The position numbers and the translations under genes are program-made. Source: Gammaproteobacteria bacterium (GTDB lineage Bacteria > Pseudomonadota > Gammaproteobacteria > S012-40). Taken from it: a stretch of 64,000 bases of DNA. Shown in pieces: positions 41,546-64,000 of this stretch. The DNA lies in the NCBI GenBank assembly GCA_029883265.1, contig JAOUJM010000001.1, positions 10,511 to 74,510 on the forward strand, written 5' to 3'. How positions within the stretch are numbered: the stretch's first letter is position 1; the number at the start of each line of letters is the position of its first letter. The notes below the pieces were generated by a model. It saw only the letters and a program-made list of their open reading frames with translations, searched no databases and was not told the origin of the DNA.

Positions 41546-41877
41546 CCACCATAGATTATGAGCATAAAGCCCTTGACGAACGTATACTGTACTTGATTTG
41601 TTTTCGAGTAATGCATTGTTTTCAGTTGCAAGCTTGATTAGAAAATCACCTTCATCACCGAGTGTGCCTACTCATACATTTTCGTCTGAGAAAATATTTG
41701 GTAGGTGTAGTAATTGGAATAAGCATTCAACGATGTCTCAATATCGTAGAAGGACAATAAACTCCCATTTTCCACACTCAAGCGCACAACGAATTCTCTG
41801 TCACTACCCGCGCTCATAGTCAGTGAAACTGATAGCCCATAAATTATCTGAGTGCGACTTTAACATTGAAATACTCC

Positions 41878-42330: not shown

Positions 42331-42369
42331 TTGCAGCAGGATTTCCCACATTTTCCCTTGCCAACGGTA

Positions 42370-43845: not shown

Positions 43846-43876
43846 TTTACAATAGCCGCAACCACACGATAAAATA

Positions 43877-44809: not shown

Positions 44810-44814
44810 AAACC

Positions 44815-46776: not shown

Positions 46777-46944
46777 TCAAAAGAATTCATCCTTGGCCAT
46801 AATATGAGAATCATGAGCCTTAACGGGACAAATATTCTTAAAATACCCGCGAAATGCATCGTTGACATGATCCATATTTCGATCACGCTCTTTCATGCGT
46901 CTCTTTGCTCTGGCAAATGCTTCGTCACTTGGTATTTTACTCAT
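46777..46944 (-). CDS. Small ORF (55 aa, MSKIPSDEAFARAKRRMKERDRNMDHVNDAFRG…) with a strong RBS
   Basis: AGGAAGG lies 8 nt upstream of the ATG (46944..46942). The ORF is below the ORF-track size cutoff. It conflicts with the overlapping track ORF 46620..46886. Confidence 0.3.
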   Translation of the reverse strand: MSKIPSDEAFARAKRRMKERDRNMDHVNDAFRGYFKNICPVKAHDSHIMAKDEFF

Positions 46945-46979
46945 CTATTTTCGCCTTCCTGACCTAGTGATCTTGCTCA

Positions 46980-47429
46980 AAGATGTTTAGTCGGATTGCA
47001 CAAAAAAATGTTCGTTTGACTATTCTTTATACGATTTTAATTTTTTAGTCTATTTTTGCCTAGCCATATGAGATGTCATGTCAATTTAAAGCGCTGAAGA
47101 TCAAGCTTTTTCAAAAAAACTTATAACGCTCTGAATGATTTTTTCCGGTGTATCAAGATTGTCTCCTGCTGCGAGAATAGTTTTACATAGGAGTACGAGC
47201 GGAGAATTTGGCTGCATGGCTTCCGCTTTTAGCAATACTTCGCTGGCCTGATTGTCATTGCCTTCAAACAATGCCACCAAAGCCAAACTTGCGAGTGTTT
47301 CCGCACTTTGTCCATCAAGTATTAATGCTTGCTGCAAGTTGCTTTTTGCTACTGAGATTTGATTACTGGCTATTTGCGCCCAGGCCAATGCAACCAGGTT
47401 CGCAGTGTCGTTTGGCATGAGGTTTGTGG
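46980..47429. repeat. ~450-bp direct repeat, right copy
   Basis: Pairs with 41064-41514. Confidence 0.8.
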
Positions 47430-48189
47430 CCTGTTGCAAATAGTCACAAGCGGAGGAAAAATCCTGTTGCTGTAATGCAATCATGCCCAGCCCAGACAAG
47501 GACCGTGCATTTTTTGCATCACGCTTCAACGCATGATGGTAATATTGTTTGGCATGATTCAAATCAGATCGATCAAAACTTATCGTCCCCAACACTACAT
47601 GGGCTTCAAGCGAATCAGCATCTAATTCCAAAGCTGTTGTGGCATACTCTAAGGCCCTGTCTTGTTGTTGCGCATCCAAAGAAATAATCGCTAGTTGTCC
47701 GAGTGCTGTCACATCCTGAGGATGCCGCACAAGATATTTTTCGAGATTAGACTGCGCTTCATCAAGTTTATTGAGGTGATGCTGTGCTCGCGCAAGTACA
47801 ACCGCTACATTGGGTACTTGTTGAGACTGTAGATCAATTGCACGAAGCACCTCTTCGGCTTGCTCATACTCTCCTGTATATAAGTAGGCATAACCAAGAT
47901 TGTAACGCAGCACATCATTATCCACGCCTTGTCGCTGCATATCCAACAAAGTAGCAATCGCTTGCTTATAATCACCACTGGCGATGCTGAATGTTGCTAA
48001 ACGAAAAAGCAAACCCGGGTCAGCTCCTAAGCGTTGGATGGCAGATTTAATCTGTTGTTCTGCGTTATCAAACTGCGCAAGCTGCGTTTGTAAATCAATC
48101 ACACGATACAAAAGATGCAAATTGTTTTCGTCTTGTGACAAATAACCTAAAAACTTGTTGAGCTCTGTTTGCAGTTGATCCGTATCCAT
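47101..48189 (-). CDS. TPR-repeat protein
   Basis: 362 aa containing multiple 34-residue TPR-like repeats. It is the last gene of the flagellar array. Confidence 0.6.
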   Translation of the reverse strand: MDTDQLQTELNKFLGYLSQDENNLHLLYRVIDLQTQLAQFDNAEQQIKSAIQRLGADPGLLFRLATFSIASGDYKQAIATLLDMQRQGVDNDVLRYNLGYAYLYTGEYEQAEEVLRAIDLQSQQVPNVAVVLARAQHHLNKLDEAQSNLEKYLVRHPQDVTALGQLAIISLDAQQQDRALEYATTALELDADSLEAHVVLGTISFDRSDLNHAKQYYHHALKRDAKNARSLSGLGMIALQQQDFSSACDYLQQATNLMPNDTANLVALAWAQIASNQISVAKSNLQQALILDGQSAETLASLALVALFEGNDNQASEVLLKAEAMQPNSPLVLLCKTILAAGDNLDTPEKIIQSVISFFEKA

Positions 48190-48205: not shown

Positions 48206-48763
48206 TTAGTTTATCGTCTTATACGCGTTTTTTGCTAATTGAAGATTATTATTAACATCCTCATTGCTTTGATCTTGATTGAGCTGTGTTAACAATTCCT
48301 TGGCCTTGCCAAAATATAAATTATCGGCAGGTGCAGACTGCATCAGTCGATTCAAACACTCACGAGATTTCTCGAATTCTCCTTTTTGCGCATGGGCAAG
48401 TCCCTTATAAAACAGTGTCGGCGGACTCAAAGGCTCAACCTCTAACACTTCTGCCCATATTTGTAGCGCGTCATCAATCTGGTTTGAGTCAAAGTGTAAC
48501 ATACCGTACTCAAATTTTTCGATGGTTGCTTGATGACTGTTTTTTAGGTATTGCTGATAAAATTGTTTGGCTTTGTCATACAAATGCAATTGCGCGAACA
48601 ACTTTCCTCCCATAATTAATGCCTCGCTATTATCCGCATCGACTTTCAGCACTTGTTTGATTTTTAATAAAGCGTGATCGACCCGATTTTGCTCGATATC
48701 TAAACGTGCTAAGGCCACTAGCTCCCTATTATCAAATTCATTCAACATGGATTGAATATCCAT
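48206..48763 (-). CDS. TPR-repeat protein (small, chaperone-like)
   Basis: 185 aa with 3-4 TPR repeats. It lies directly downstream of fliA. Confidence 0.5.
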   Translation of the reverse strand: MDIQSMLNEFDNRELVALARLDIEQNRVDHALLKIKQVLKVDADNSEALIMGGKLFAQLHLYDKAKQFYQQYLKNSHQATIEKFEYGMLHFDSNQIDDALQIWAEVLEVEPLSPPTLFYKGLAHAQKGEFEKSRECLNRLMQSAPADNLYFGKAKELLTQLNQDQSNEDVNNNLQLAKNAYKTIN

Positions 48764-48803: not shown

Positions 48804-49538
48804 TTAGTAACTAACATCCATTGTTTCCGAATGATCCATAAGTTTTCGTAGATTGTCCAAACCACTTTTGTGGAGTTGGGATACGCGCGCTTTTGATAAA
48901 CTCATTAACTTGGCTATGGACTCAAAGCTTAGATGATAAAAATAGTGACAGCGTAACACTTCTTGCTCGTTTTCTTTCAATCTGCCGACTAAATCCCGCA
49001 TTTGAGATTTCAAGCGCCGTAGTTCGTCACTGTTATATGGATTACCATCAATTGCCACTGGGTGATCTTCACTGTCAAGTATATAACTGATCGCAAAGTT
49101 TACCGTGGTCTCAACCATTCGCGCAAACACCGACTGTTTAAAAGCCTCCGAGTCCACAGAGGTAATCGATGTTACACGATCGGCCTGGGCCTGCTTGGCG
49201 AAACTATATTGTTTTCGTTTTTCAGTAAAGTTTTGAATACCATTAAGAATGGCTCCTTTGATTCGATAGCTTGCGAAGCTTGAAAATCGTATATTCTTCT
49301 GCCAATCAAAACGATCAATTGACTCAATAAGACCGACGGTTCCCAATTGAATATAATCGTCTAGGTCAATATCATGCTGATTCTGTTTTAAATAAACATG
49401 GGTTGCAGTTTGCCGGACCAAGCCGAGATAGTGACAGATAATTTTATCTCTAACTTTGCCGCATGAATCCGAATCAAGCTGCTGCCACAAATCCAGTTCA
49501 TCATTGATTATCGGTTCTTCCGCTGAAATTGTCATCAT
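48804..49538 (-). CDS. fliA: Flagellar sigma factor FliA (sigma-28 type)
   Basis: 244 aa. Region 2 motif LGTVGLIESIDRFDWQKNIRFSSFASYRIKGAI. Region 4 HTH LSFESIAKLMSLSKARVSQLHKSGLDNLRK. Confidence 0.8.
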   Translation of the reverse strand: MMTISAEEPIINDELDLWQQLDSDSCGKVRDKIICHYLGLVRQTATHVYLKQNQHDIDLDDYIQLGTVGLIESIDRFDWQKNIRFSSFASYRIKGAILNGIQNFTEKRKQYSFAKQAQADRVTSITSVDSEAFKQSVFARMVETTVNFAISYILDSEDHPVAIDGNPYNSDELRRLKSQMRDLVGRLKENEQEVLRCHYFYHLSFESIAKLMSLSKARVSQLHKSGLDNLRKLMDHSETMDVSY

Positions 49539-49550
49539 CCATACAACAGC

Positions 49551-50300
49551 TTATAGAAAACTTCCCATTAATGCTTCAATCACCAAGTTCCAACCGTCAA
49601 TTAACACAAACATCATAATTTTGATGGGCAGAGAAATCATCATGGGCGGTACCATTAACATGCCCATGGACATTAGGATACTCGCCACCACCAAATCGAT
49701 AAGCAAAAAGGGCAAAAAAATAACAAATCCAATTTGAAAAGCGGTTTTTAATTCACTAATCATAAATGCCGGAATCAAAGTGAAATTACTTATTTCTTCT
49801 ACGGTGCCAGGCATTTCTTCTCCCGCCAAATCAATCATCAGTGCAATATCTTTTTCTCGCGATTGCTTAATCATAAATTCCCGGAGTGGTGACATTGCCA
49901 AATCAAAGGCGTGCCCCGGTTGCATTTGATCGTTCATGAAGGGCTGAAACGCTTGCTGGTTAATCTGTTTAAATACGGGCGCCATATTAAACACCGTCAG
50001 AAACAATGCAAGACTAATCAAAACCGTATTCGGTGGTGTTTGCTGCATACCAAACGCATGGCGCAATATGGCTAATACTACGATAATTCGCGTAAACGAT
50101 GTCATAACTACTAGAATGGCTGGTACCAGACTGAGTACAGTCAACCCCAATAATACTTTAAGCGCTGCCGCGATTTCAGTTTTGTCTTCAGCTTTATCAG
50201 CAAATGAAACACTAATGCCGGGCAACTCGATATCGGCCGCTTGAATTTGTCCTGACCAAACAAAAACCGCTAATCCTAGAAATAAAAGCAAAAACTTCAT
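49551..50300 (-). CDS. fliP: Flagellar export apparatus protein FliP
   Basis: 249 aa. Cleavable signal peptide followed by four TM helices. Conserved motifs …PPxxV/I…GF…IPFL. Confidence 0.9.
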   Translation of the reverse strand: MKFLLLFLGLAVFVWSGQIQAADIELPGISVSFADKAEDKTEIAAALKVLLGLTVLSLVPAILVVMTSFTRIIVVLAILRHAFGMQQTPPNTVLISLALFLTVFNMAPVFKQINQQAFQPFMNDQMQPGHAFDLAMSPLREFMIKQSREKDIALMIDLAGEEMPGTVEEISNFTLIPAFMISELKTAFQIGFVIFLPFLLIDLVVASILMSMGMLMVPPMMISLPIKIMMFVLIDGWNLVIEALMGSFL

Positions 50301-50314
50301 GCTTAGGTCTACCT

Positions 50315-50728
50315 TTATAATTCTTGTTTTGCACTTGCTATGGCTGTGACATTAACATGATCACCGGCTTGCGATAATAAAAATGTCTGCTGATCGATTT
50401 CAACCAAGAACACGGTGGTCTTGGTTGATAAACGCTGCGTCTCCAATAATCGTATCCGTCGCCCTCCTGGCGATTGTGCCGATGGTACAAAATTAAAACG
50501 GCGCATTATATAAATTGAAAATACCGCCAACGTAATCGCAATCACTAATCCTACAAACACTTTTGAAACCAATGCAACGGTTATAACCTCGTCTTGCTTA
50601 AAAGGAATTGCTGACGATTCTGTGCGTAACTCGATGCGCTCGTTCTTTTGCAGAGTGCCCGCGGGATCATCAGCAGCCAAACTTAACATCGGCATCAATA
50701 GCAGTAACAACAAAATAGTTTTTTTCAT
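50315..50728 (-). CDS. fliO: Flagellar protein FliO
   Basis: 137 aa with a single TM segment. It sits between fliN and fliP. Confidence 0.6.
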   Translation of the reverse strand: MKKTILLLLLLMPMLSLAADDPAGTLQKNERIELRTESSAIPFKQDEVITVALVSKVFVGLVIAITLAVFSIYIMRRFNFVPSAQSPGGRRIRLLETQRLSTKTTVFLVEIDQQTFLLSQAGDHVNVTAIASAKQEL

Positions 50729-51027
50729 TATTTTTGGATATCAGTCACTTGAACACCATAATTATTATCCACTGCCACGAGATTGCCCCGAGCCACTACT
50801 TTACCATCTAAAATAATATCCACCGGCGCATTAATTTCCTGATTGAGCTGCAATACTTCATTTTCTTTTAAATCATACAATTCACCAACCGTCATCTCAG
50901 AATCACCCAATCTGACTTCAAGCGATACCTTTACATTACGAATCAGTTCCATATCGTTATCTAGCAACTTTTTTCCTTGGTCTTCTTCAATAAAAAACTC
51001 ACCAAGTTCTACATTCTTTACCACCAT
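50728..51027 (-). CDS. fliN: Flagellar motor switch protein FliN
   Basis: 99 aa SpoA-domain protein (…VSLEVRLGDSEMTVGELYDLKENEVLQLNQ…DIILDGKVVARGNLVAVDNNYGVQVTDI). Confidence 0.8.
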   Translation of the reverse strand: MVVKNVELGEFFIEEDQGKKLLDNDMELIRNVKVSLEVRLGDSEMTVGELYDLKENEVLQLNQEINAPVDIILDGKVVARGNLVAVDNNYGVQVTDIQK

Positions 51028-51051: not shown

Positions 51052-51852
51052 TTACTTATTTAGTGAAACAACTTTTAATGATTTGCGTTTATTCTGCTGT
51101 CCCAAGTAGGCTTTGCATTGAATTGTTTTGCCATGAATAACTATATTTACAGAATCATTCAACGATTGATCCAAGCGCAACACATCCCCGATTTTTAGAT
51201 TACGCAAATCATTAACACTGACTTCCGTCTGGCCAATCTCCACACTATACTGAATGCGTTTGGACCGCAGGGACTCATGAATACTGTTTAATTTTGCTTT
51301 TTCTTTTCTTGATTGATTATCTGCGACTAACAGGCTGCTGACCATTGTAGGCGCCATTACAACGCGTAGTTCTGCGAGCCCGAGACGAATCGACACCTGT
51401 ATCGCAGCTGAACCTTTGTAGAAATAATTGCTTGGCACAGTGGTGTCACTGGTTTGGTCAAAGGGCGCAACACGCACTTGCTCAATTTCTTTTTCACAAA
51501 GTCCGGCCCCCAAGTGTCGTAATGCGTCACGCAACACATGCGACATCAATTGACTATTTGAAAGATCAATTGATGTCGTCTTTGGTTCTGGAAACATTAA
51601 CGTTGTATAAAAATCTTTTTTAAAGCTTGCGCCCGTGCGAAACTCACACATAAACTCATTGTTCTCATCCATAAATGCATAGGCAATGGATGCATCGAGT
51701 GGTGGCAACGGATGATCAACATGTACAATGGCTATTTGACTATTAAGCATCCAGTCTTTTGCCCATTGCTCAAGTCTATTTTGTAGCTTTGTTTTAATAA
51801 CTTGTGCTCGTTTGGGACTGATCAGCACAAAAGAAGATATGTTTTTCATCAT
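51052..51852 (-). CDS. fliM: FliM-like switch protein (short; lacks the N-terminal CheY-binding peptide)
   Basis: 266 aa. C-terminal SpoA-like segment EVSVNDLRNLKIGDVLRLDQ…VNIVIHGKTIQCKAYLG. Position immediately before fliN. Confidence 0.55.
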   Translation of the reverse strand: MMKNISSFVLISPKRAQVIKTKLQNRLEQWAKDWMLNSQIAIVHVDHPLPPLDASIAYAFMDENNEFMCEFRTGASFKKDFYTTLMFPEPKTTSIDLSNSQLMSHVLRDALRHLGAGLCEKEIEQVRVAPFDQTSDTTVPSNYFYKGSAAIQVSIRLGLAELRVVMAPTMVSSLLVADNQSRKEKAKLNSIHESLRSKRIQYSVEIGQTEVSVNDLRNLKIGDVLRLDQSLNDSVNIVIHGKTIQCKAYLGQQNKRKSLKVVSLNK

Positions 51853-53078
51853 TTCCTCATTGACTCAATGAGTTCTTGCATCATTTCATTTGCCGTGGTC
51901 AAAATTTGCGATGAGGCTTGAAATCCACGTTGCGTGATAATTAGATTGGCAAATTGAGTACTAATCTCAACATTAGACAATTCAATTTTTCCACTCACTA
52001 TTTCGCCCATGCCATCCTGTGTTGCTGATGAAATTGTTTTCTTCATACCGTCATCCGCTGAAAATATTCCACGTCCCAACTGTCTTAACGATTGCAAATC
52101 ATCAAACCAAGCAATAGCCAACTGGTTCAATTTCAGCTCCTCACCATTGGCGTAAGTGATGGTGAATACGCCTTCCCGGTCAAATGCCATATCGCGAATT
52201 GCCGACGCGGTTGAACCATTTTGTGATTTCACCGCCAAATCTGATCGGGTGCCGGCAGAAAACGAAGTTGCATTGGCAAAACTACCCGGTTCACCAAAAA
52301 ACAATTTAACAGACATTGTTTCTTGCCCTTCGGGTTGAAACTCAAATTCATATTGGTTAAATCCCTCCTCCGGCGTTCCATTGCTTTGAAATCGAATCTG
52401 TCCACCGGTGTTTATGGTTATTCCTTTACTATTTTGCACCTCTAGATTCCATTGATGGAGAAACGGCGTGGATTTGTCCTCAACCAGGATTAACTTCAAT
52501 TTATGTTCAGTCCCGGCCTTATCAAGAATGACAACGTCACTAACTTCATGACGGTTTGGTGTTGAACTCTCTGTTGATCGAGATAAGTTATTTGAAAACT
52601 TTATTTCTGTTGTTGCTCGGGGTGCAAGTGTGCGATAGGCATCAATATTAATTGTCTCGAGATTGTTTTTTGAATTTAGACTTAGGAGTTGGTAATTGCT
52701 TCCTAAACTAACAACATAACCATCTTTGTCGACTGAAAATTGTCCAGATCGACTATAATATTGTTGCCCCCCATCACTAACGATAAAAAAACCATTTCCT
52801 CTAACCGCAGCATCCAAGGAATTACCCGTATCGCGCAGTTCACCTTGACTAAATTGAATTGATGTCGAATGAGTCGCTACACCTTGACCAATTTGAGTGT
52901 GCGTTTTTCCCGAGTTTTGTTCATCGTTAAGTTGATACTGATAAAACAAATCCCTAAAAACCAAATCTGAGCCTTTAAAACCCGGCGTGTTGAGATTTGA
53001 AATATTATTACTAATGGAATCTAAACCTTTCGAATAAGCGCTTAATCCAGACATTCCGGTATACATGGCTCCAATCAT
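51849..53078 (-). CDS. flgE: Flagellar hook protein FlgE
   Basis: 409 aa. N-terminal rod/hook motif SGLSA…ISNNISNLNTPGFK. C-terminal GFQASSQILTTANEMMQELI. Confidence 0.8.
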   Translation of the reverse strand: MIGAMYTGMSGLSAYSKGLDSISNNISNLNTPGFKGSDLVFRDLFYQYQLNDEQNSGKTHTQIGQGVATHSTSIQFSQGELRDTGNSLDAAVRGNGFFIVSDGGQQYYSRSGQFSVDKDGYVVSLGSNYQLLSLNSKNNLETINIDAYRTLAPRATTEIKFSNNLSRSTESSTPNRHEVSDVVILDKAGTEHKLKLILVEDKSTPFLHQWNLEVQNSKGITINTGGQIRFQSNGTPEEGFNQYEFEFQPEGQETMSVKLFFGEPGSFANATSFSAGTRSDLAVKSQNGSTASAIRDMAFDREGVFTITYANGEELKLNQLAIAWFDDLQSLRQLGRGIFSADDGMKKTISSATQDGMGEIVSGKIELSNVEISTQFANLIITQRGFQASSQILTTANEMMQELIESMRK

Positions 53079-53515
53079 GGTGCATCTCCTGTCGTTGCCT
53101 GAGTGACAAGTGAAATTTGTGAAAGACTGACATTAATATCCACTTGTTGGCTGGCATCACTTTTCACTGACAATCGTGGAACACCTTGTTCAAATCGAAT
53201 AGCAATGACATCACCAGTTTCTTTCCGTCCATCCGAGTAACCAACATCGACTTTTTTACCGATCAAACCGATGGCTTGATCCGATGATTGAATGGTTAGT
53301 GCCGCATCCAATTTTTCATTGAGTTGGCGCGATTGCTCTAAATTAGTAAACTGAGCAAGCTGTGCAATAAACTCTTGATTGTCCATTGGCTTAAGTGGAT
53401 CCTGGTAGGTCAATTGGTTGATCAAGATTTTGAACAAATCCTCTTGTCCTACACCAGCATTCTGTAATTGTGCTAGCGGGGTTGATATCACACCACCGAC
53501 AGTTTCGACAGCCAT
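53075..53515 (-). CDS. flgD: Hook capping protein FlgD
   Basis: 146 aa. LFKILINQLTYQDPLKPMDNQEF matches the FlgD signature. Confidence 0.75.
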   Translation of the reverse strand: MAVETVGGVISTPLAQLQNAGVGQEDLFKILINQLTYQDPLKPMDNQEFIAQLAQFTNLEQSRQLNEKLDAALTIQSSDQAIGLIGKKVDVGYSDGRKETGDVIAIRFEQGVPRLSVKSDASQQVDINVSLSQISLVTQATTGDAP

Positions 53516-53527
53516 AAGTTTGCCTCC

Positions 53528-54208
53528 TTAATACAAAATATTAACCGAGCCATCGTTATTGACTGGCTCCGTTTGATGTTTTGATGGTTGATGAAAAACC
53601 AGTTGTTGGTTAACCTTCAGTCCTACCAATTTTTGATTGCTCCGTTGTAATTGTAATTGTGTCCATTGGAGCAAACGCTGAATATGATGTGTTTCAAGTG
53701 TAAGGTCATTAATGGCAACCAAGACACCTCCCTCCACTTTGGTCAATACGACCGGGTTTTTCTCACGCGACAATGGTTTATGTTGATTGTCGCTAGTGGG
53801 TTCCACCGGCTTTGCTTGTGGTCTTGCATTATTGACCACGAGCGAACGCATAGCTTGAGGAAAATCGGTGGTAGGCTTACTGGTTTGTGAAACAAATTCC
53901 TGTTGAATAGCGACCGAGACTGTTTTATTGGAAGCAACCTGATTGACACCTGAATTCGCGGTCTGTATGGCAATTGATGCGCTATCAATTGCGTCATAAG
54001 GTGAAGCACTGACTATTTGATTTACCACAACATGTTCGGTGGAAGGATTGGTATCGGGCGAGTTTTTTATTTGTGCATCAAATTGTCGTTGTTCATCAAA
54101 CCAGGCCTTTTCCCATTGATTCATCGCCTTGGATTTCTCGTTCTGATAGGAAATTATATTTTTCATTGCCAGTAATGGCATTGGATTTGTTTTCACAGAA
54201 TCAGTCAT
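53528..54208 (-). CDS. fliK: Putative hook-length control protein FliK
   Basis: 226 aa Q/P/S-rich protein between fliJ and flgD. The assignment is positional. Confidence 0.4.
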   Translation of the reverse strand: MTDSVKTNPMPLLAMKNIISYQNEKSKAMNQWEKAWFDEQRQFDAQIKNSPDTNPSTEHVVVNQIVSASPYDAIDSASIAIQTANSGVNQVASNKTVSVAIQQEFVSQTSKPTTDFPQAMRSLVVNNARPQAKPVEPTSDNQHKPLSREKNPVVLTKVEGGVLVAINDLTLETHHIQRLLQWTQLQLQRSNQKLVGLKVNQQLVFHQPSKHQTEPVNNDGSVNILY

Positions 54209-54657
54209 TAGTGCGTGCCTCCATGTTTGAGTAACTGGAATTCGTCAGCTTGGCATTGTTCACTTTTTGAAGTCCGTTCTGAAATAGATTGCTGTTTTTT
54301 CTCGGCCAAATGATTGAGTGCACGTTCTTCTGACGAAATGCGCTTGCACTGTTGTTCGATCATTTGCAGTTTCTCTAGCTCATAGTCAAATAGTCGCTTG
54401 AGTTGATCGTAGCGATGACGTTGTGCGCGTATGAATTGCGGATAACTAAGCATGCTAGTCAATGCCAATTGTTGTTTGCTTTGCAAGCAATCTCGATAAT
54501 CGGACTCACTTTGTTTGATGATGTGTAAACATTGATCCATTGCACCTTCAATATTTTGAGTTTTTACACGCTGTTGATTACGCTGCTGAACTTGCTTCTG
54601 TAGCTCAAAGGATCGAATCATAGCAAGGCGAATGAATATTTGTTTTTGTCTATTCAT
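54208..54657 (-). CDS. fliJ: Flagellar export chaperone FliJ
   Basis: 149-aa Q/R/E-rich coiled-coil protein immediately after fliI (overlapping starts). Confidence 0.55.
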   Translation of the reverse strand: MNRQKQIFIRLAMIRSFELQKQVQQRNQQRVKTQNIEGAMDQCLHIIKQSESDYRDCLQSKQQLALTSMLSYPQFIRAQRHRYDQLKRLFDYELEKLQMIEQQCKRISSEERALNHLAEKKQQSISERTSKSEQCQADEFQLLKHGGTH

Positions 54658-55993
54658 TGGGAATCCTTGCCGACGCTTGTGAATCCTTAAGTAACTGCTT
54701 TAAGTCCTTGTATCCATCAGCTAGGCTACAGTGGTCGCTGGTTTTTTGCTGTGCAAATTGGTCAAACTCCGCTTTAAAGCGAATCGCACGATCCAAAACT
54801 GCATTCCCACCCGCTTGATACACGCCAAGTTCGACCATGTCGCGGGACTTTTCGTAGCTGGCTAACAACTTCATAACATCGTTACAAATACTGGCCTGTT
54901 CTTCGGTATGCAAACTCGAACTCAGACGACTATGACTTTGCAACACGTCAATTGCAGGAAAGTGTCGTTTATTCGCATAATCACGCGATAACACTATATG
55001 TCCATCCAAAATCGCTCGCACACTGTCACTGACGGGCTCATTCAAATCATCACCTTCGACTAGCACCGTATAAATCCCGGTAATCGAGCCTTTGCCTTTT
55101 ATGCCACCGCAACGTTCCAGTAATCGGGGCAAATGTGTGAACACCGTGGGTGTATATCCTCTTGCGGTGGGAGGCTCTCCGATGGATAGACCGATTTCCC
55201 GCTGCGCCATTGCAAACCGGGTAATAGAATCCATGGTCAACAAAACGTGTAAACCCTGCTCACGATAATATTCCGCAATCCGTGTCGCCGTGTATGCGGC
55301 ATGCACACGTTCGAGCGGTGATTGGTCTGAGGTTGAAACAATGACAACTGATTTTTTTAGAGTGTCTGCGTCGAGATTTTCTTCAACAAACTCCATGGCC
55401 TCACGACCGCGTTCACCCACTAGTGCAATTATATTGACGTCGGCATCCGAGCAGCGGGAAATCATACCTAACAAAGAACTTTTCCCTATTCCGCTGCCGG
55501 AAAATATGCCAATGCGCTGACCTCGACCAATACTTAACAAGGTATCAATCACCGCTACACCGGTGTGTATTTGTGTGTCAATACGCGAACGCGCAAGTGG
55601 GTTGATCTCAGGCTGATACAATTCTATTCGTTGATTACAATCGTGAAGATCTTCACCGTCTAAGGGTTCACCGAATGCATTAAGTACGCGCCCCAAAAGA
55701 CCTCTACCCACATTAAGTTGAGTTGTACGGCCCAACGCGATCACCTCTGCACCCAGGCGAATACCACGAATATCGCCATGGGGCATGAGTAAAACACGAT
55801 TGTTTTTTATACCCACAACCTCTGCCATCACTTGATGTCGCTGTGAGGAATGGATTTGACAGAGCTCTCCGAGAAAGACTTCTGGACCGACGGATTCAAT
55901 AATCAAACCAAAAAACTGCGTCACTTTGCCAACCGACTTAACCAGGCGTTTGTCTTTAATCGCTTGTTTTAAGCTATGCAACTGAGCATTCAA
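54650..55993 (-). CDS. fliI: Flagellum-specific ATPase FliI
   Basis: 447 aa. Walker A GSGIGKS. Overall T3SS ATPase layout. Confidence 0.9.
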   Translation of the reverse strand: MNAQLHSLKQAIKDKRLVKSVGKVTQFFGLIIESVGPEVFLGELCQIHSSQRHQVMAEVVGIKNNRVLLMPHGDIRGIRLGAEVIALGRTTQLNVGRGLLGRVLNAFGEPLDGEDLHDCNQRIELYQPEINPLARSRIDTQIHTGVAVIDTLLSIGRGQRIGIFSGSGIGKSSLLGMISRCSDADVNIIALVGERGREAMEFVEENLDADTLKKSVVIVSTSDQSPLERVHAAYTATRIAEYYREQGLHVLLTMDSITRFAMAQREIGLSIGEPPTARGYTPTVFTHLPRLLERCGGIKGKGSITGIYTVLVEGDDLNEPVSDSVRAILDGHIVLSRDYANKRHFPAIDVLQSHSRLSSSLHTEEQASICNDVMKLLASYEKSRDMVELGVYQAGGNAVLDRAIRFKAEFDQFAQQKTSDHCSLADGYKDLKQLLKDSQASARIPNE

Positions 55994-56745
55994 ACGTCTT
56001 GTCCCTCTTGTTGGTTTTCCAACAATACCTTTTTCAATTCTTCGAGTTGTTGTTCTAATCGAGCATCTAAACTACCTTGATCAAGCTGAATAATGCAGCC
56101 ACCGTATCTAACCCGTTCATCGGCTACTAGTGGGTACGTCAAGGAAAGGCATGGTGAATCACTTGTCTCATGCACCAACATCTCGTAATCCTGAGGAGAC
56201 ACCAGCACCTCAATGACCTGTTGATTAGTCACTTGCTGGATAGCGTGATTAATAGCCGCGCGACTGAACGTTTTATTAGCGAGTGATTCACCAACTATTT
56301 TACTGATGCTCACCATAACTACATCGAGCAATTCATCACTCATGGCCTGCAAATAACGTTGTTTCTCATCATTGATAGTACCCAATAGTGTTTCTAACGA
56401 GACTAATTTTGAGTTCATCTCTTTGGTTGCATCTTCTAACCCGCGGGCATACGCTTCATCGTAAGCTTTTTTGCAAGCTTCTTCCTGGTCTAGTCTCAAT
56501 CCGTCATTCAAAACATCGACTTGTTGTTTTAACTCCACGTTGTCTAGTTTAAGCTGCGTATTTTGTGCTACCACTAATTGGTAGTCGTCCTGCGAAATAG
56601 TAGATTTGGGGGCGAAGTCTATTGCTTCCACTAGCGTGGAAGTGGTGTGAGATAACACAGTAGGTTTATTGAATGTCCTACCCAAAATGACTTTGTTGCA
56701 CTCATCAAATACGGGTGAAGTAATTACTTTTTTTAATTCCGTCAT
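55990..56745 (-). CDS. fliH: Flagellar assembly protein FliH
   Basis: 251 aa in the fliG-fliH-fliI position. Coiled-coil middle region. Confidence 0.55.
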   Translation of the reverse strand: MTELKKVITSPVFDECNKVILGRTFNKPTVLSHTTSTLVEAIDFAPKSTISQDDYQLVVAQNTQLKLDNVELKQQVDVLNDGLRLDQEEACKKAYDEAYARGLEDATKEMNSKLVSLETLLGTINDEKQRYLQAMSDELLDVVMVSISKIVGESLANKTFSRAAINHAIQQVTNQQVIEVLVSPQDYEMLVHETSDSPCLSLTYPLVADERVRYGGCIIQLDQGSLDARLEQQLEELKKVLLENQQEGQDV

Positions 56746-56778: not shown

Positions 56779-57270
56779 TTAATTGATAGTAGAAATTGAA
56801 TTTGGATCCGACTCTAGTACCAACGCCCTTATTAATGATGCTTGTAATTTTCCTGGAAGGCGTGGTAACACGTCATCACCGTTCGTCAATACTTTCAGTT
56901 GTCTCCGTCGCTTTGATTGATTGATATATTCCGCCTTCCAAGGCCATTCTTTCATATTTACCACTTGGGCACTCACATGTATGGATTCACTATCCAGAAT
57001 TGCCTGCACATCAAGCAATTTAACTTTTGCAAGGATTTCTTCTTCTAAACTCGTCGCCGAAAAGGCCTTCTTTTGCAGAGAGGTATCACATGTTTGCAAT
57101 ACTTGTTGCAATAATAATTCGTCTTTTGGAATCCCAATACTTTCTAATTCTTCCAAGGCTGTTTCAATCGCCGGCTGATACAAATCGGGTATCGACTCCA
57201 ATAGCCACTGCTGATCTTTAGGATCAAGTGAATACAAAACCATCGCTATTCTTTTCGTTACTTGCATCAA
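56779..57270 (-). CDS. fliG: FliG-like protein, N-terminal domain only (163 aa)
   Basis: KRIAMVLYSLDPKDQQWLLESIP resembles the FliG N-terminal (FliF-binding) domain. The protein is about half the usual FliG length and lacks the C-terminal torque-generating domain. It sits in the fliF-fliG-fliH position. Confidence 0.45.
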   Translation of the reverse strand: MMQVTKRIAMVLYSLDPKDQQWLLESIPDLYQPAIETALEELESIGIPKDELLLQQVLQTCDTSLQKKAFSATSLEEEILAKVKLLDVQAILDSESIHVSAQVVNMKEWPWKAEYINQSKRRRQLKVLTNGDDVLPRLPGKLQASLIRALVLESDPNSISTIN

Positions 57271-58751
57271 CGTGCTTCCCTCAAAACACCATTTTCATCT
57301 GCTTCCAACCAATGATTAATTTGTAACAACAGTTTATTTCGTTCTGATTCACTCAAGCGTTTTCGTTGGTTAATTAATTTGAACGCCAACAAAATGATGA
57401 TTAGCACAAGAAAAAAAAGACCGGCAAACACAGCCACAATTTGGTTTCGACTCGTTGTCCAATAGTGCTGCACACGTGCTTTGATCTGCTCAAGTAACCA
57501 ACTGTCGCTCGCGTCTGCGTCGACTGGTTGAATGGGTTGTGACAGCGTGTTCTGGACGAGTGGTTGTGGAGGTACTGGTTCCGCAATAGCAACAGGTACT
57601 TCTAGTTGATCGTCATGATCCGTAAAAAATCCATATTCAATTGCATGAACCACCACCTTGTCGCCACGGGCATCATCAAGACCCGCTGCCATTGCCACCA
57701 GCTCTTGTATTTTCTTGATTTGGCGCGAGCTGGTATCTTCAGGCACTGATACGCCGATGCTTATATTTTTAATGGAGCCAGGCTCGCTGATTATCAGATC
57801 CACTTTTTTGCCGAATTGGTATTCTATTTCTGTAATTGATTGAGGCTCAGCATTCTCCGAGTTATTGTTGTCGCTTCGCTTGATTTCTTTCCTTCGGATC
57901 ACTCCACGATTTTTTGAATCAACCGGTATGTAGTCTTCGCGAGTGGTTTTGGTTTGGCGGTAATCCAGATTGACATTAACCCCCACAACACTTTGGTTAG
58001 GTCCTAGCGATTGCTCGAGCACTTTTTCTATTTTCCTTGTAAGATAATTCTCTAGCTCCTGTTTTCGTTTTAGTCGGGAACTAATGTTTACCACTGCTTG
58101 ATCGGTTTCAATATTATTGCTGATTGTATTTCCATCCTGGTCAATGACAACAACATTGTGCTCACTCATATGATCCACAGCATTTGCAACTAGTTTTTGG
58201 ATCCCTATAATTTGCCGTTCAGCAAGACGGGATCCTGATTTTAGAAATACTGTCACCGACGCGCTTGATTCCGTTTTCTTCTTTGAAAATAGTTTGGTTT
58301 GCGGAATCATTAGATGAACACGCGCATGTCGTATTTCTTCAATTGAGGAAATAGTACGCGCAAGCTCACCCTGCATAGCGCGTTGGTAATTAATTTTTTG
58401 TACAAATTCAGTCATTCCAAAATCGGACTTGTCAAATAATTCCAAACCTACCCCACCACCAAAGGTCACATTAGCGCCTGCCAGTTTTAGCCGTGTTTCA
58501 TGAACCTTGTCTTGGGGTATTAATAACGCGGTGCCATTCTGGCTGATTCGATAAGGAACTTTTTGATTCTCTAGTTCAGCGATGACTTTTGCCGCATCCT
58601 GAGGTGCTAACTCGGAAAAGAGTAAGCCGTATTCTGTTTTAAGCAGCCAAAATAGAGACGAAACAATTACTCCCACAATAATTACGCCGCCCAGAATGAG
58701 TATTAGGTTCTTAGTCGTTGGTTGTTGATCTGTTTTTAATATGCTTGGCAT
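57267..58751 (-). CDS. fliF: Flagellar MS-ring protein FliF
   Basis: 494 aa. N-terminal TM segment, YscJ/FliF-type periplasmic domains and a C-terminal TM segment. Confidence 0.85.
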   Translation of the reverse strand: MPSILKTDQQPTTKNLILILGGVIIVGVIVSSLFWLLKTEYGLLFSELAPQDAAKVIAELENQKVPYRISQNGTALLIPQDKVHETRLKLAGANVTFGGGVGLELFDKSDFGMTEFVQKINYQRAMQGELARTISSIEEIRHARVHLMIPQTKLFSKKKTESSASVTVFLKSGSRLAERQIIGIQKLVANAVDHMSEHNVVVIDQDGNTISNNIETDQAVVNISSRLKRKQELENYLTRKIEKVLEQSLGPNQSVVGVNVNLDYRQTKTTREDYIPVDSKNRGVIRRKEIKRSDNNNSENAEPQSITEIEYQFGKKVDLIISEPGSIKNISIGVSVPEDTSSRQIKKIQELVAMAAGLDDARGDKVVVHAIEYGFFTDHDDQLEVPVAIAEPVPPQPLVQNTLSQPIQPVDADASDSWLLEQIKARVQHYWTTSRNQIVAVFAGLFFLVLIIILLAFKLINQRKRLSESERNKLLLQINHWLEADENGVLREAR

Positions 58752-58760: not shown

Positions 58761-59081
58761 CTACACTTGCATGCGCATAATTTCCTGATAACCTTCAAGC
58801 AATTTGTTTCGAACTTGAATGGCCAGTTGTAATTCAGTTTTAGCTTTCTCTAGCGACAACATGACGTGATGTAAGTTGTTTGTTTCGCCTGTTGCCAGTG
58901 CCATAAGCTGAGACTCGGCTTGTTGTATATTTTGATTTAAATGGCCCGTACCCTGATTAAGCCATATCGCAAAATCACTATTCGGCTGCGAGACATTTGC
59001 AGTCATCCCATTTCCCTCAAGACTGGGTAACAACATTTGCGAATTGATACTGGTTAGGTTGATCGGTTCTACTGCCATCAC
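58761..59081 (-). CDS. fliE: Flagellar hook-basal body protein FliE
   Basis: 106 aa with C-terminal …VRNKLLEGYQEIMRMQV. Confidence 0.8.
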   Translation of the reverse strand: MMAVEPINLTSINSQMLLPSLEGNGMTANVSQPNSDFAIWLNQGTGHLNQNIQQAESQLMALATGETNNLHHVMLSLEKAKTELQLAIQVRNKLLEGYQEIMRMQV

Positions 59082-59512
59082 TATCTCCCAATTTCTAGTG
59101 CGCGGTTCGCCATGGATTTTGCAGCATTCATCGCCGCCACGTTTGCATCATAGGTTCTTAATGCCTGTAACATCGTGACCATTTCCGATACGGTATTAAT
59201 ATTTGGATAGGCAACATAACCCTTATCATCCGCATGAGGGTGACTTGGATCATAAACCAACTTCGGTTCGACATTGTCCGGTTGTACACTAAACGCAGTA
59301 ACACCTTGTGGATTGATCTGCTGTTTTAACAGTATTTTATTAAACGTTGAATCAATCGGTACGTTGGAGATAACGCGTAATGGTCGATATGTTTCACTCG
59401 CATTCTTTGCACTCACATTGGCATTTGCTAGATTCATGGCCACCGTGTCCAATCGAAGTTTTTCTAGTGCCATGCCTGATGCGCTAATTTGAAAAGCGGA
59501 TAAATAATCCAT
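59081..59512 (-). CDS. flgC: Flagellar basal-body rod protein FlgC
   Basis: 143 aa. N-terminal …SASGMALEKLRLDTVAMNLANANV. Confidence 0.85.
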   Translation of the reverse strand: MDYLSAFQISASGMALEKLRLDTVAMNLANANVSAKNASETYRPLRVISNVPIDSTFNKILLKQQINPQGVTAFSVQPDNVEPKLVYDPSHPHADDKGYVAYPNINTVSEMVTMLQALRTYDANVAAMNAAKSMANRALEIGR

Positions 59513-59514
59513 AA

Positions 59515-59910
59515 CTAACTCCTGACATCTTCTTTAATAGCCATTTTTAACAAGGAACCGTATTTGCTCAACCCCTCTAATAGTGCTTTATAGTGCAAGG
59601 TGTTGTCTGCCAGTTTTGCCATTTCCATATCAAGCTGTACTTTTTGCTCACCGGTTTGAAGCAAGCCTTCTCCATTATTTAATTGATTGCGCAGAGAACT
59701 AATATGTTCATCGATAGATTGTTCCGCGCCATCGCCTGCGATGTGTTCACTCAACTGTCTCAGATAGGGCTCGAACGCCAGGGTTTGTGGTTTGAACCCA
59801 TCGGTATTTGCATTAGCAATATTATTAGCGATGACCTTATGTTGCATAACCGAGGCATCAAGCGCCAGTTTGACCACCTCAGCGGTGATACTAGAAATTC
59901 CTTCAGTCAT
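59515..59910 (-). CDS. flgB: Flagellar basal-body rod protein FlgB
   Basis: 131 aa with IANNIANANTDGFK. Confidence 0.85.
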   Translation of the reverse strand: MTEGISSITAEVVKLALDASVMQHKVIANNIANANTDGFKPQTLAFEPYLRQLSEHIAGDGAEQSIDEHISSLRNQLNNGEGLLQTGEQKVQLDMEMAKLADNTLHYKALLEGLSKYGSLLKMAIKEDVRS

Positions 59911-59959
59911 TTATTTTCCTTCTACTGTTGTTTCAAACATTGACAGAATCTGCCTGTGG

Positions 59960-61108
59960 CTATTGAATAATAATTTCTGCATGTAAACTGCCTGCTCGTT
60001 TAATGGATTGTAATATTGTAATGATATCCCGACTTGATGCTTTTACTTGATACAACGCGGTGACTAAATCCATGACCGTGGAATGACCGGACAAAGACAC
60101 GAGCAATGGATCATCCTCTTTCACTTCAAGCGTGGATTTGGGCACAATTGCAGTTCTAACATCACTGCCGCTTTGACGAACGAACATGGGTTGTGAAACA
60201 CTGTAATCAGTACTAATGGATACATTCAAATCACCGTGAGTGATACTCACTGGCGATATTTTTACATTCCCACCGGCAACCACCGTACCCGTACGTTCAT
60301 TGACCACAACTTTTGCGCTTACATCTGGTTGAACTTTTGTATTTTCAATCTTGGTGATGAATCCAACCACATTATTTCGATCTTGACGAGGCACACGAAT
60401 TTGAATTCGTCCGGCATTGCTTGCTTTAGCTAACGATTGACCAAACGCTTGTTGTAAGGCTTCAACAATACGGCTAGACGTTGTGAAATCCGGATTTGCC
60501 AGAACAAACTCGATAAAACCTTCGTCATTGACCAATGTGGTTTGCGCAGATTGCTCAACGATAGCGCCATTGGGAACATAACCAGCGGTAGGATGATTTT
60601 TTTGAACAAGATTTCCGTTTAGGTCATAACTAAAACCACCGACCGATATTTGGCCTTGCGCTAACGCAAAGATTCGCCCACCTGGGCCAATGAGGTGTGC
60701 ACGCAACAAGGTACCACCCACTAAACTACGCGCATCTCCCATCGACGTAATATTAACATCCAGTTTATCACCCGATCCTGCAAAAGGAGGTAAGATCGCG
60801 GTAACCATTACGGAAGCCACATTACGTCCCCGCACTTGTTTGGGCACAACATTTACGCCAAACGCTTTCAAAACATTGGCAACTGATTGGTAAGTGGCAG
60901 CACTTCGGGTGGAATCACCGGTGCCAGCGAGACCAGTGACTAAACCATAGCCCACCAACATATTGTCTCGTGCTTCGGCAATGCGTCCGAGTTCTTTTAT
61001 ACGTATTGTTAAATCTATTTCACCATTGTCTTCGGCATGAGTAACCGTGCCTGCAAAACAACACAAGAGCACGAGAATGATTTGAATAATTTTTCTAGTC
61101 TGTTTCAT
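59960..61108 (-). CDS. flgI: Flagellar P-ring protein FlgI
   Basis: 382 aa. Signal peptide. LVGYGLVTGLAGTGDS. Confidence 0.9.
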   Translation of the reverse strand: MKQTRKIIQIILVLLCCFAGTVTHAEDNGEIDLTIRIKELGRIAEARDNMLVGYGLVTGLAGTGDSTRSAATYQSVANVLKAFGVNVVPKQVRGRNVASVMVTAILPPFAGSGDKLDVNITSMGDARSLVGGTLLRAHLIGPGGRIFALAQGQISVGGFSYDLNGNLVQKNHPTAGYVPNGAIVEQSAQTTLVNDEGFIEFVLANPDFTTSSRIVEALQQAFGQSLAKASNAGRIQIRVPRQDRNNVVGFITKIENTKVQPDVSAKVVVNERTGTVVAGGNVKISPVSITHGDLNVSISTDYSVSQPMFVRQSGSDVRTAIVPKSTLEVKEDDPLLVSLSGHSTVMDLVTALYQVKASSRDIITILQSIKRAGSLHAEIIIQ

Positions 61109-61109
61109 G

Positions 61110-61676
61110 TTAAAACAACCAATTAAATATGCGAGTTATAATGCCTGGTTTACCGCGAGAGCTAATGAGCCCCTCACCACTAAATTCAATTTCTGCATCT
61201 GCCATTCGACTGGACAATATGGTGTTATCACTGGCGATATCCTGGGGTCTTACTCGACCATACACACTTATTTTTTGGGTATCGTTGTTAAAATCAATAT
61301 ACTGCTCACCTTCGACAATTAATTCACCGTTGTTTAATTTTTCACTAACGGACACGGAAACGGTTGCAACCAGCTTTCCCGCTTGTTTACTACTACCACT
61401 CCCGCCAAAATCATTTGATATATCCAAACCTGCCCCAAGATTCGAAATCTTATCAAACGCCGATATACCAACATCACTGGATTTTTTTGTATCCGTTTGT
61501 GTTGATGTCGTCGCGGAAGCCACTTCATAAATCATGACTGTTAATAAATCGCCAACCTTGTAGCTGCGGTGATCGCCGGTTAAGGACTTGTAACTTGATT
61601 CACTATATAAACTGCCCGCTAGGGCTGTGTTTTGAATAAGCAATAAAAGTAAAACAACATTAACTATTGTCTTCAT
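61110..61676 (-). CDS. flgH: Flagellar L-ring lipoprotein FlgH
   Basis: 188 aa. Signal peptide. GDLLTVMIYEVASATTSTQTDTKKSS. Confidence 0.85.
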   Translation of the reverse strand: MKTIVNVVLLLLLIQNTALAGSLYSESSYKSLTGDHRSYKVGDLLTVMIYEVASATTSTQTDTKKSSDVGISAFDKISNLGAGLDISNDFGGSGSSKQAGKLVATVSVSVSEKLNNGELIVEGEQYIDFNNDTQKISVYGRVRPQDIASDNTILSSRMADAEIEFSGEGLISSRGKPGIITRIFNWLF

Positions 61677-62652
61677 TTCGGCCTCCCACCACAGCCAACT
61701 GATCGCCAGTCACTCTCACTTGATAAATTAAACCGCTGCGAATGTTTTTTACATCAATGTAATCACCCACCTGTCCATCAGACAATGCTTCAGCATCCGC
61801 ATGGATGACAACTGCTCCTTGAGAGACCATGACTTTTAACTTTTCACCTTTGCTTACGGCAGGCAAGACTTCTATACTTCGCCTTGTTAACACATCGCCT
61901 TGTTTCACTGACAAACGCAAACGATTACCTTCAAGTAGGGAAGCTTTATTCAAATGCTCCGGAAACAAGGTAATGTCTTTTTGCTCCAGCAAAAACTGTT
62001 GTGTTGACAGGTGTTGACCGCGATCTAGGTCATGTCGAGCGACATAAACCCAATCCTTAATTTTGACTTCAAACCAAATCGGCACAGACTGATACAATAC
62101 ACTTTGGCTGTGGATATCAACCCAAACACACATACGTCGATGTGGATTCAAGGGCTCAGCTAATCTCACTCGTAAATCATAGGGTGCATCGGGAATCAAT
62201 AAATCTTTTAACAAACTTTTTTCATTGATATTCACTATTGAATATTCTTCACTGAGTGTTTTGTATAGCGCATCATAAGCAGGTTTCAAAATGGTCGTTC
62301 TTGTCAATTTGGTAGCCTTTGTTTTCACTTTTACACTCAACGGGCCCTGCCAATGTATGGATTCGTTATGTAGAACATTAGCTTTCTCCAATTGCGCTTG
62401 GATTTGCAAACGTGCAATAGTCTTGCTTTGCCCAGCAAGCGGTGCCTCGGAGATCATTAATTGTTGCAACAATGCTTTCTCGCTAGTATCAGTGGTTAAA
62501 ACTTCCACAAGTTGTCCTAACATGATCACTGGTGTATTGACTTGCGTATTCGTTAACAACTGTAACTCCACAGCCGCATTGGCAATGCTATGCAGCAGAC
62601 CGAGGAATGCTGTCAATATCAAAACCATTAATTGTCGCTGGTAAAATCTCAT
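61660..62652 (-). CDS. flgA: Flagellar P-ring assembly chaperone FlgA (long form)
   Basis: 330 aa. Signal peptide. C-terminal GDYIDVKNIRSGLIYQVRVTGDQLAVV matches the FlgA SAF-domain end. Confidence 0.6.
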   Translation of the reverse strand: MRFYQRQLMVLILTAFLGLLHSIANAAVELQLLTNTQVNTPVIMLGQLVEVLTTDTSEKALLQQLMISEAPLAGQSKTIARLQIQAQLEKANVLHNESIHWQGPLSVKVKTKATKLTRTTILKPAYDALYKTLSEEYSIVNINEKSLLKDLLIPDAPYDLRVRLAEPLNPHRRMCVWVDIHSQSVLYQSVPIWFEVKIKDWVYVARHDLDRGQHLSTQQFLLEQKDITLFPEHLNKASLLEGNRLRLSVKQGDVLTRRSIEVLPAVSKGEKLKVMVSQGAVVIHADAEALSDGQVGDYIDVKNIRSGLIYQVRVTGDQLAVVGGRNEDNS

Positions 62653-63428
62653 CGTTTTAAATTATTCACAATTCCCATTAATTCATCAGCGGCTTGTATT
62701 ACTTTTGAATTTATTTCATATGCCCGTTGTGCCAACATCAAGCTTGAGAGTTCTTCGACTAGCTTCACATTGGATGATTCAAGAAATCCTTGTGCGAGCG
62801 TACCACTACCGTTTTCCCCAGGTGTATTATAAATGGCATCACCGCTTTGACGATTTTTAAGATAAAGATTATTACCGATCGGTTCCAATGCTGTTTGATT
62901 GACAAAACTTGCCAACTCCAACTCGCCGAGCTCCATGAGCTCTTGTTCACCCGCAAGTTGTGCCAGCACTTTTCCATTGGGTTTTACCAGTAGCTGTTCA
63001 GTATCACTAGGTACTGAAATCATCGGATTTATCATATGACCATCTGCATTCACCAAGTAATTATCCTGGTTGACACTAAATGCGCCCGTACGTGTATAAG
63101 CAAAACTGCCATCCGGCAAAACCACTTCAAAAAAGCCATCACCATTGATCGCAAAATCATATGGACTTTCGGTCTGTTTCATATCACCGGTTGAAAATAT
63201 TTTTGAGGTGCCAGTAATTGCCGAGCCCAATCCTGAAAATTTTTGTGATTCTACTTGCGTTAGTGGAATAGCGGCCAGGTCATTACTCGATCGGTACATC
63301 AAGTCTTCGAAATCAACCCGGCTCTTTTTAAACCCAGGGGTATTCACATTTGCCAAATTGTTTGCGATCACGTCGATTGCGGTTTGTTGGGTTTGCATGC
63401 CTGTTGCGGCAATAAATAACGAATCCAT
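62649..63428 (-). CDS. flgG: Flagellar distal rod protein FlgG
   Basis: 259 aa. ATGMQTQQTAIDVIANNLANVNTPGFK. Confidence 0.8.
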   Translation of the reverse strand: MDSLFIAATGMQTQQTAIDVIANNLANVNTPGFKKSRVDFEDLMYRSSNDLAAIPLTQVESQKFSGLGSAITGTSKIFSTGDMKQTESPYDFAINGDGFFEVVLPDGSFAYTRTGAFSVNQDNYLVNADGHMINPMISVPSDTEQLLVKPNGKVLAQLAGEQELMELGELELASFVNQTALEPIGNNLYLKNRQSGDAIYNTPGENGSGTLAQGFLESSNVKLVEELSSLMLAQRAYEINSKVIQAADELMGIVNNLKR

Positions 63429-63439
63429 AATGTTTACTC

Positions 63440-64000
63440 CTATAAATTGCTGCCTAGACTACGAATAGCCGAGTCCATCATTTCGTCATACGTTTTCATG
63501 ACACGTTGCGCTGATTCAAAGTGTCTTGTAGTTGCGATCATGTTAACCATTGCCTGCATGGTATTGACATTTGAGTTTTCCAAATAGCCAGGACGTAGGG
63601 TTAGCGAATCGTCATTGACCGGATGTGGCTCGGCCCCATTGAACCTAAATATCCCCCCGCCTGCTTTTTCCAAGGATGAAACTTCTCCCGTGCTATATAA
63701 CTGCAACTGTGCCACAAGATTATCGCCGTCCCATATGCGCCCTTGCGAATCAATTCTAGGACTGGAGGTGTTTAGCATGATGTCTCCGCTTGTTCCTTGC
63801 ACCGCGTATCCATGCTGGCTGACTAAACGTCCGCTTTGATCAATTGAAAAATTCCCTTGACGGGTAAAAAATGATTGACCGTTTGAATATAATTTGAAAA
63901 ACGCATTTGTTTCAATGGCCACATCGAGAGGATTACCGGTGAACTTGAAAGTGCCGGGCTGCATATCTACCTGTGTAACAAGGCTTTGATTGTCTGGTAA
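63440..64000 (-). CDS. flgF: Flagellar proximal rod protein FlgF (partial; N-terminus beyond window end)
   Basis: Track ORF 63440..63964. The frame stays open to position 64000 (…LPDNQSLVTQVDMQPG…). C-terminal rod-protein motif …ENSNVNTMQAMVNMIATTRHFESAQRVMKTYDEM. Confidence 0.7.
   Translation of the reverse strand, partial: LPDNQSLVTQVDMQPGTFKFTGNPLDVAIETNAFFKLYSNGQSFFTRQGNFSIDQSGRLVSQHGYAVQGTSGDIMLNTSSPRIDSQGRIWDGDNLVAQLQLYSTGEVSSLEKAGGGIFRFNGAEPHPVNDDSLTLRPGYLENSNVNTMQAMVNMIATTRHFESAQRVMKTYDEMMDSAIRSLGSNL

Follow-up and report, generated by a model that had tools for sequence, protein, structure and literature searches.

A short FliG homolog without the C-terminal domain in a widespread, probably non-rotating flagellar-type gene cluster

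Within the flagellar rotor, FliG is the component on which the stator exerts its torque. Secondary flagella of the Flag-2 and lateral types encode their own full-length FliG, together with stators (LafT/U), flagellin, and hook-associated proteins. In canonical FliG, the N-terminal domain (FliG_N) binds FliF_C, the middle domain (FliG_M) binds FliM, and the torque helix of the C-terminal domain (FliG_C) contacts MotA (Minamino et al. 2019, PMC6700473). The rings formed by canonical FliG rely on contacts between FliG_M and FliG_CN (PMC6700473).

Injectisomes (NF-T3SS) and an intermediate form in the Myxococcales are exporters derived from the flagellum (Abby & Rocha 2012, PMC3459982). Buchnera aphidicola produces non-motile flagellar basal bodies, for which a role in secretion has been proposed, and it retains basal body and hook genes without flagellin or motAB (PMC8109811). 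The cluster described below, found in a 64,000-nucleotide stretch of gammaproteobacterial DNA (the window, which is the whole stretch that was analyzed), resembles that of Buchnera in this respect. However, Buchnera keeps full-size FliG (38 kDa) and FliM (37 kDa) as well as flgK, and its state is one of reductive genome decay (PMC8109811). In the present cluster, which has its own sigma factor, FliG and FliM are remodeled as a family trait in free-living bacteria with large genomes, and the cluster coexists with a canonical fliG at least in Ralstonia solanacearum YC45.

The short FliG and its family

The short fliG gene lies on the minus strand between fliF (57267..58751) and fliH (55990..56745), inside a long flagellar array. 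Its open reading frame (56779..57270) encodes 163 amino acids when read from a TTG, although translation more likely begins at the ATG at 57267, which gives a protein of 162 amino acids (56779..57267) and shares one base with the TGA stop codon of fliF. Only 33 bp separate its stop codon from fliH, and a search of the whole window in six frames with a FliG HMM found neither a remnant of FliG_C nor a second fliG. At least four independent assemblies have contigs that encode the same protein, letter for letter, and its family is uniformly short; the boundaries of the reading frame are therefore not an error. The short fliG is a genuine conserved gene, and neither the sequencing error nor the downstream frameshift that the original prediction had allowed for accounts for it.

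The relationship of this protein to FliG is visible only through a family profile or a structure model. Taken alone, the window protein falls, in contrast to canonical FliG, below all Pfam and NCBIfam thresholds, with no FliG model matched even at E<=1. A phmmer search of the PDB with the single sequence gave no meaningful match, and a word-indexed homology search returned only the query itself. Even the family profile yielded just four proteins in the word-indexed search, and a full HMMER scan was required to recover the family. When this profile was compared with the PDB, all 12 matches were FliG, with the C-terminal half aligning to FliG_M and the N-terminus to the start of FliG_N. Alignment of the family to FliG with hhalign gave a probability of 94.7% (E 6.4e-8) and was colinear over FliG residues 9–189 (Aquifex aeolicus, or A. 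aeolicus, numbering). A single-sequence AlphaFold run was unusable (pLDDT 43), but the AF2 model of the short FliG has a compact, confident fold (pLDDT 88.4), in which the FliG_M fold is present and superposes on the canonical middle domain at 2.0 Å. The top 14 Foldseek matches of this model are all FliG, with weak E-values of about 0.03.

These weak E-values, together with the lack of any Pfam or NCBIfam match for the protein alone, would also fit an unrelated small helical protein of the ARM/MgtE_N type that lies between fliF and fliH by chance. At E<=1, MgtE_N was matched in 25 of 60 family members and FliG_M in 18 of 60, and the sub-threshold matches of some members are to FliG_M, FliG_N, or MgtE_N. 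Cross-matches to MgtE_N are expected because MgtE_N and FliG share an ARM-type repeat. An origin outside FliG is very improbable given that the match runs colinearly across both FliG_N and FliG_M, that the profile finds nothing but FliG in the PDB, and that the gene occupies the fliG position in 38 of 38 loci. By profile and model, the short FliG is a natural FliG homolog that lacks the C-terminal domain.

Comparison with canonical FliG (~330 amino acids; PDB 3HJL, 8UMD) shows what is kept and what is lost. The position between fliF and fliH and the colinear arrangement of FliG_N, helix_NM, and FliG_M are common to both, and the short form consists of a reduced FliG_N, helix_NM, and a complete ARM-type FliG_M. 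It stops at a position corresponding to A. aeolicus residue ~189, the point at which canonical FliG continues with helix_MC and FliG_C. Since it ends there, it has no ARM_C for ring stacking, no MFXF hinge, and no torque helix, the element that contacts MotA (E. coli R281/D289). Without FliG_C, the FliG_M–FliG_CN ring contacts of the canonical protein are impossible. FliG_N is about 19 residues shorter than its canonical counterpart. Of the EHPQR motif, which contacts FliM, only the glutamate is retained (E95, nearly invariant), and the histidine, glutamine, and arginine are not conserved in the family. The short proteins have invariant W-P-W and D..W motifs of their own, and D19, W22, L42, and W109 are invariant. 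The original prediction had described a FliG reduced to its N-terminal domain, recognizable as such in the sequence, with the middle and torque-generating domains both absent. FliG homology and the absence of the torque domain have held up; the restriction to the N-terminal domain has not, as helix_NM and all of FliG_M are kept, and FliG_N itself is not recognizable from the single sequence.

The family contains at least 444 sequence clusters, counted as representatives, and its best 150 members are all 135–250 amino acids long. Loci were located with a degenerate DNA pattern encoding E-P-x3-[VI]-A-x2-L-x4-W-P-W, which gave 49 matches, 38 of them true. In all 38 of these named genomes, mostly Burkholderiales with some Gammaproteobacteria, the short fliG lies between fliF and fliH in one shared type of cluster, with matching synteny in Marinobacterium, Variovorax, and Undibacterium. 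The clusters are often sited on plasmids or chromids. In the one RefSeq record read, that of Undibacterium pUYM01, the homolog is labeled as hypothetical and its neighbors carry generic FliM/FliN or YscN-family names, so that the cluster is easily missed in routine annotation. A literature search found no paper on the short FliG or its cluster. The cluster is widespread and apparently undescribed.

A flagellar cluster without motor or filament genes

The complete cluster has the order fliQR-flhBA-flgFGAHIBC-fliEF-shortFliG-fliHIJ-X-flgDE-fliM-like-fliNOP-sigma. In the window, it is encoded on the minus strand and begins with flgF, which is cut by the window end, followed by flgG, flgA, flgH, flgI, flgB, flgC, and fliE (58761..64000). 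The upstream part of the operon (flhA, flhB, fliR, and fliQ) is known from contig k141_38327 (loci L001 and L061). The fliF gene (57267..58751) encodes a protein of 494 amino acids that matches Pfam YscJ_FliF (1e-60) and TIGR00206 (236.9 bits, above cut-off). The cytoplasmic tail of FliF after TM2 is short, and an alignment of the tails from six loci reveals a conserved helix, LS(E/D)xER..L..(I/V)..WL(E/D), which is likely the docking site for the short FliG.

On the other side of the short fliG are fliH (55990..56745; Pfam FliH, 2.9e-16) and the gene for the export ATPase FliI (54650..55993; TIGR01026, 584 bits), which scores under the equivalog cut-offs of the flagellar and SctN models alike. 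A FliJ-like protein of 149 amino acids (54208..54657) is assigned by gene position and a weak TIGR02473 match (E 0.045). The fliK position is occupied by protein X (53528..54208; 226 amino acids), which is conserved in six loci and has no match in Pfam or NCBIfam. It is followed by flgD (53075..53515; Pfam FlgD, 1.5e-17) and the hook protein gene flgE (51849..53078), the product of which matches Flg_bb_rod, LlgE_F_G_D1, Flg_bbr_C, and the NCBIfam FlgE models. The remaining flagellar genes are a FliM/SctQ-like gene (51052..51852), fliN (50728..51027; Pfam FliMN_C, 2.3e-20), fliO (50315..50728; Pfam FliO, 2.4e-6), and fliP (49551..50300; Pfam FliP, 1.2e-78; TIGR01103 above cut-off). The cluster ends with a cluster-specific sigma factor of the FliA/WhiG type (48804..49538; below the family cut-off), and a homolog of it follows fliP at the cluster end in loci L006, L007, L008, L036, L060, and L065.

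As originally predicted, the FliM-like protein is short. In its 266 amino acids, only the C-terminal SpoA (FliMN_C) domain is recognizable, and a profile of the protein matched the SpoA domain alone in the PDB. Its N-terminus (MMKNISSFVL...) contains no CheY-P-binding peptide of the LSQxEIDALL type, and no FliM middle domain (GGXG) is detectable.

Thus, the cluster encodes a flagellar-type export gate (FliPQR, FlhAB), an ATPase complex (FliHIJ), the MS ring, rod, P and L rings, hook cap, and hook, together with the FliM/SctQ-like protein, FliN, and its own sigma factor. The array had been described as otherwise complete-looking, but motAB, fliC, flgK/L, fliD, fliS, and flgM/N are all missing from it. 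No motAB stators were found in the full cluster, in the window, or in any related locus examined, and flagellin, flgKL, fliD, and che genes are absent from every cluster copy examined (about ten).

The shedding of motility parts (no stator, no FliG torque domain) and the presence of a SctQ-like platform protein are shared with the injectisome. The short-FliG cluster differs from it in retaining rod proteins, FliE, the P and L rings, FlgD, and FlgE. Moreover, the injectisome parts, namely the secretin SctC, the SctD ring, the SctF needle, and SctK, were not found in the cluster. FlhA and FliP score above the flagellar equivalog cut-offs, and the models for SctV, SctR, and SctU give lower scores than their flagellar counterparts. 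Flagellar families account for most of the cluster genes, and the remaining three (short FliG, the FliJ-like protein, and X) match no injectisome family. This pattern looks like an independent loss of rotation inside the flagellar lineage.

It has also to be considered whether the truncated fliG is a pseudogene within a decaying flagellar cluster, as the original prediction had offered as one reading. The megaplasmid copy of the cluster in R. solanacearum YC45 has indeed decayed, with flgI, fliF, and flgH in pieces, and in the window both IS66 elements and a 5.9-kb insertion lie close to the cluster. Nevertheless, no cluster reading frame in the window is disrupted, at least four assemblies carry the gene unchanged, and the short length is common to a family that keeps its motifs at about 25% identity and its synteny in 38 of 38 genomes. 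The absence of a FliG_C remnant downstream and the confident AF2 fold point the same way, and decay of the locus is highly improbable. For the window, the sequencing-error, frameshift, and pseudogene readings were all rejected on the identity of the gene across assemblies, the intact reading frames, and the uniformly short family.

The best explanation, with a probability of roughly 70%, is that a FliG without its C-terminal domain serves as a static adaptor in a non-rotating secretion machine derived from the flagellum. The cluster probably builds a secretion apparatus and not a rotating one, as had been proposed for this locus from the outset. Loss of the torque domain is a trait of the whole family, and genes for the stator, filament, junction, cap, and chemotaxis coupling are likewise missing from the cluster, which strengthens the non-rotating reading. 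In the proposed mechanism, the N-terminal domain of the short FliG would dock on the conserved C-terminal helix of FliF, and its middle domain would hold a sorting platform composed of the FliM-like protein, FliN, FliH, and FliI. The short FliG would then act as an adaptor instead of a rotor, occupying the bridging position that the unrelated SctK has in injectisomes. From this static role would follow a basal body and hook that do not rotate and that serve as a conduit for secretion. The contact between FliG_M and the FliM-like protein is an assumption here, since only the glutamate of EHPQR is kept and the FliM-like protein has no recognizable middle domain. Non-rotation is deduced from the missing parts, and stators or a FliG_C-like protein could lie in this genome beyond the DNA that was searched.

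Those parts might instead be supplied from elsewhere, in which case the cluster would encode a working rotary secondary flagellum that borrows stators, filament, junction, and torque interface from a primary system. Rod, rings, and hook are all retained, and in R. solanacearum YC45, if not in other carriers too, the replicon with the short-FliG cluster also bears a canonical flagellar system that includes a full-length fliG. However, the torque helix must belong to the rotor ring, and there is no FliG_C-like reading frame in the cluster or the window; the FliM-like protein has neither the CheY-binding peptide nor a recognizable middle domain; and motAB, fliC, flgK/L, and fliD occur in 0 of the roughly ten cluster copies examined. 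Flag-2 and lateral flagella, by comparison, bring their own motor and filament genes. A borrowed rotary motor is therefore improbable on these grounds. The short-FliG cluster resembles Flag-2 and lateral flagella (PMC6993521) in being a second, separately regulated cluster in genomes with a primary system, but the full-length FliG, stators, flagellin, and hook-associated genes of those systems are all absent from it. A full-length fliG elsewhere in the genome had been named as evidence against a non-rotating apparatus, but such a gene would leave the finding standing; because YC45 carries both, the cluster there is a secondary system, and it can be a second, specialized one.

Giant Rhs genes next to the cluster

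Beyond the sigma factor gene, the window contains two genes for TPR proteins on the minus strand, TPR1 (48206..48763) and TPR2 (47101..48189), and then a gene for a giant Rhs/YD-repeat polymorphic toxin of 6384 amino acids (21847..41001, minus strand; RHS_repeat 8e-11, plus DUF6531). In the PDB, the matches of TPR1 are confined to generic or designed TPR proteins, and it does not specifically resemble T3SS chaperones. TPR2-like genes recur immediately upstream of giant Rhs genes at other loci. Between TPR2 and the giant gene lies a 5.9-kb insertion that carries three non-flagellar genes and is bracketed by direct repeats (41065..47429). The repeat is 450 bp long, and its two copies (41065–41514 and 46980–47429) are 98.9% identical. 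Before this insertion, the ancestral order was TPR2 followed directly by the giant gene. The window also carries IS66 elements near the cluster.

The giant protein displays the traits of polymorphic toxins, including RHS/YD repeats, a variable C-terminal tip, and downstream cassettes. Its tip is an alpha/beta-hydrolase (GHSLGG) with a weak lipase/thioesterase match, and an ankyrin gene and the orphan toxin modules TNT and LHH lie 3′ of the gene. The RHS repeats, variable toxin tip, ankyrin gene, and TNT/LHH modules are shared with the Rhs toxins of T6SS (PAAR/VgrG-linked), Sec (WapA), and Tc systems. The giant differs from these known toxins in its family-specific N-terminus and its recurrent linkage to TPR genes and a flagellar-type T3SS. 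Pfam finds no PAAR, VgrG, Sec signal, or TcB/SpvB-type trafficking module in the protein, and in its first 400 residues it finds only DUF6531 and RHS repeats. The window protein contains LysM-like segments, and its N-terminus (MVAI..G..LGL..SSL..LG...) belongs to a conserved sequence specific to this family (MVAvvSG.gLGL..SSL..LG...). This N-terminus is 39% identical to that of the giant located 3′ of the same cluster in Variovorax, and a giant with the same N-terminus also follows the cluster at locus L108, which has a short FliG. The giant has at least 340 metagenomic relatives, many of them directly downstream of the short-FliG cluster type. The literature searched described no T3SS-linked class of Rhs proteins.

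It is possible that the machine exports giant Rhs toxins, which would be candidate cargo, with the TPR gene often found 3′ of the cluster as a candidate chaperone. More broadly, the cluster and its neighbors may form one functional island, in which a non-rotating flagellum-derived T3SS recognizes giant Rhs cargo through the conserved N-terminus and a cognate TPR protein. Such islands would occur in Burkholderiales and Gammaproteobacteria of soil and water. This broader reading is offered tentatively, and its odds are well short of even.

Alternatively, the basal body and hook could serve another use, such as surface sensing, adhesion, or the export of small substrates, and the giant gene could be adjacent through co-location on a mobile island. 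In roughly half of the loci with giant toxins, neither a T3SS gene nor a TPR gene occurs within 10 kb. In three cases, L007 (Marinobacterium) and the metagenomic L006 and L008, the cluster is not directly followed by a giant gene. In Undibacterium, a giant of another type, a tandem-95 repeat protein, is the neighbor, and the frequent location on plasmids or chromids also fits such co-location. Set against these observations, the order sigma, TPR2, giant on one strand recurs in a gammaproteobacterium of 41% GC, in a Variovorax of 62% GC, and in several unrelated metagenomic contigs. Among the 16 giant loci for which 7 kb or more of upstream sequence is available, 4 have the T3SS genes directly upstream. 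Chance adjacency is estimated by the authors at ~0.5% (for a 25-kb cluster in a 5-Mb genome), and the observed recurrence is far above this. In addition, the giants have neither a Sec signal nor a PAAR domain by Pfam. A use unrelated to the giant proteins is rather unlikely, though it deserves serious consideration.

Significance for flagellar and toxin biology

A large family without precisely the torque domain, in a cluster that also dispenses with stators, filament, and chemotaxis coupling, is a natural experiment that separates the parts of FliG needed for assembly and export from those needed for rotation. It is also a living parallel to the step presumed to lie at the origin of the injectisome, in which motility was lost and export kept; yet here, rod, rings, and hook remain. 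Several carriers are culturable and genetically tractable (Variovorax, Massilia, Janthinobacterium, Cupriavidus, and Marinobacterium ramblicola), so these proposals are directly testable. If the giant Rhs proteins are indeed cargo, the machine would add a secretion route to bacterial toxin biology. Should the tentative reading of cluster, TPR gene, and giant as one island prove true, it would represent a new delivery route for polymorphic toxins and a second case in which the flagellar lineage lost rotation, separate from the origin of the injectisome and widespread among Burkholderiales and Gammaproteobacteria from soil and water.

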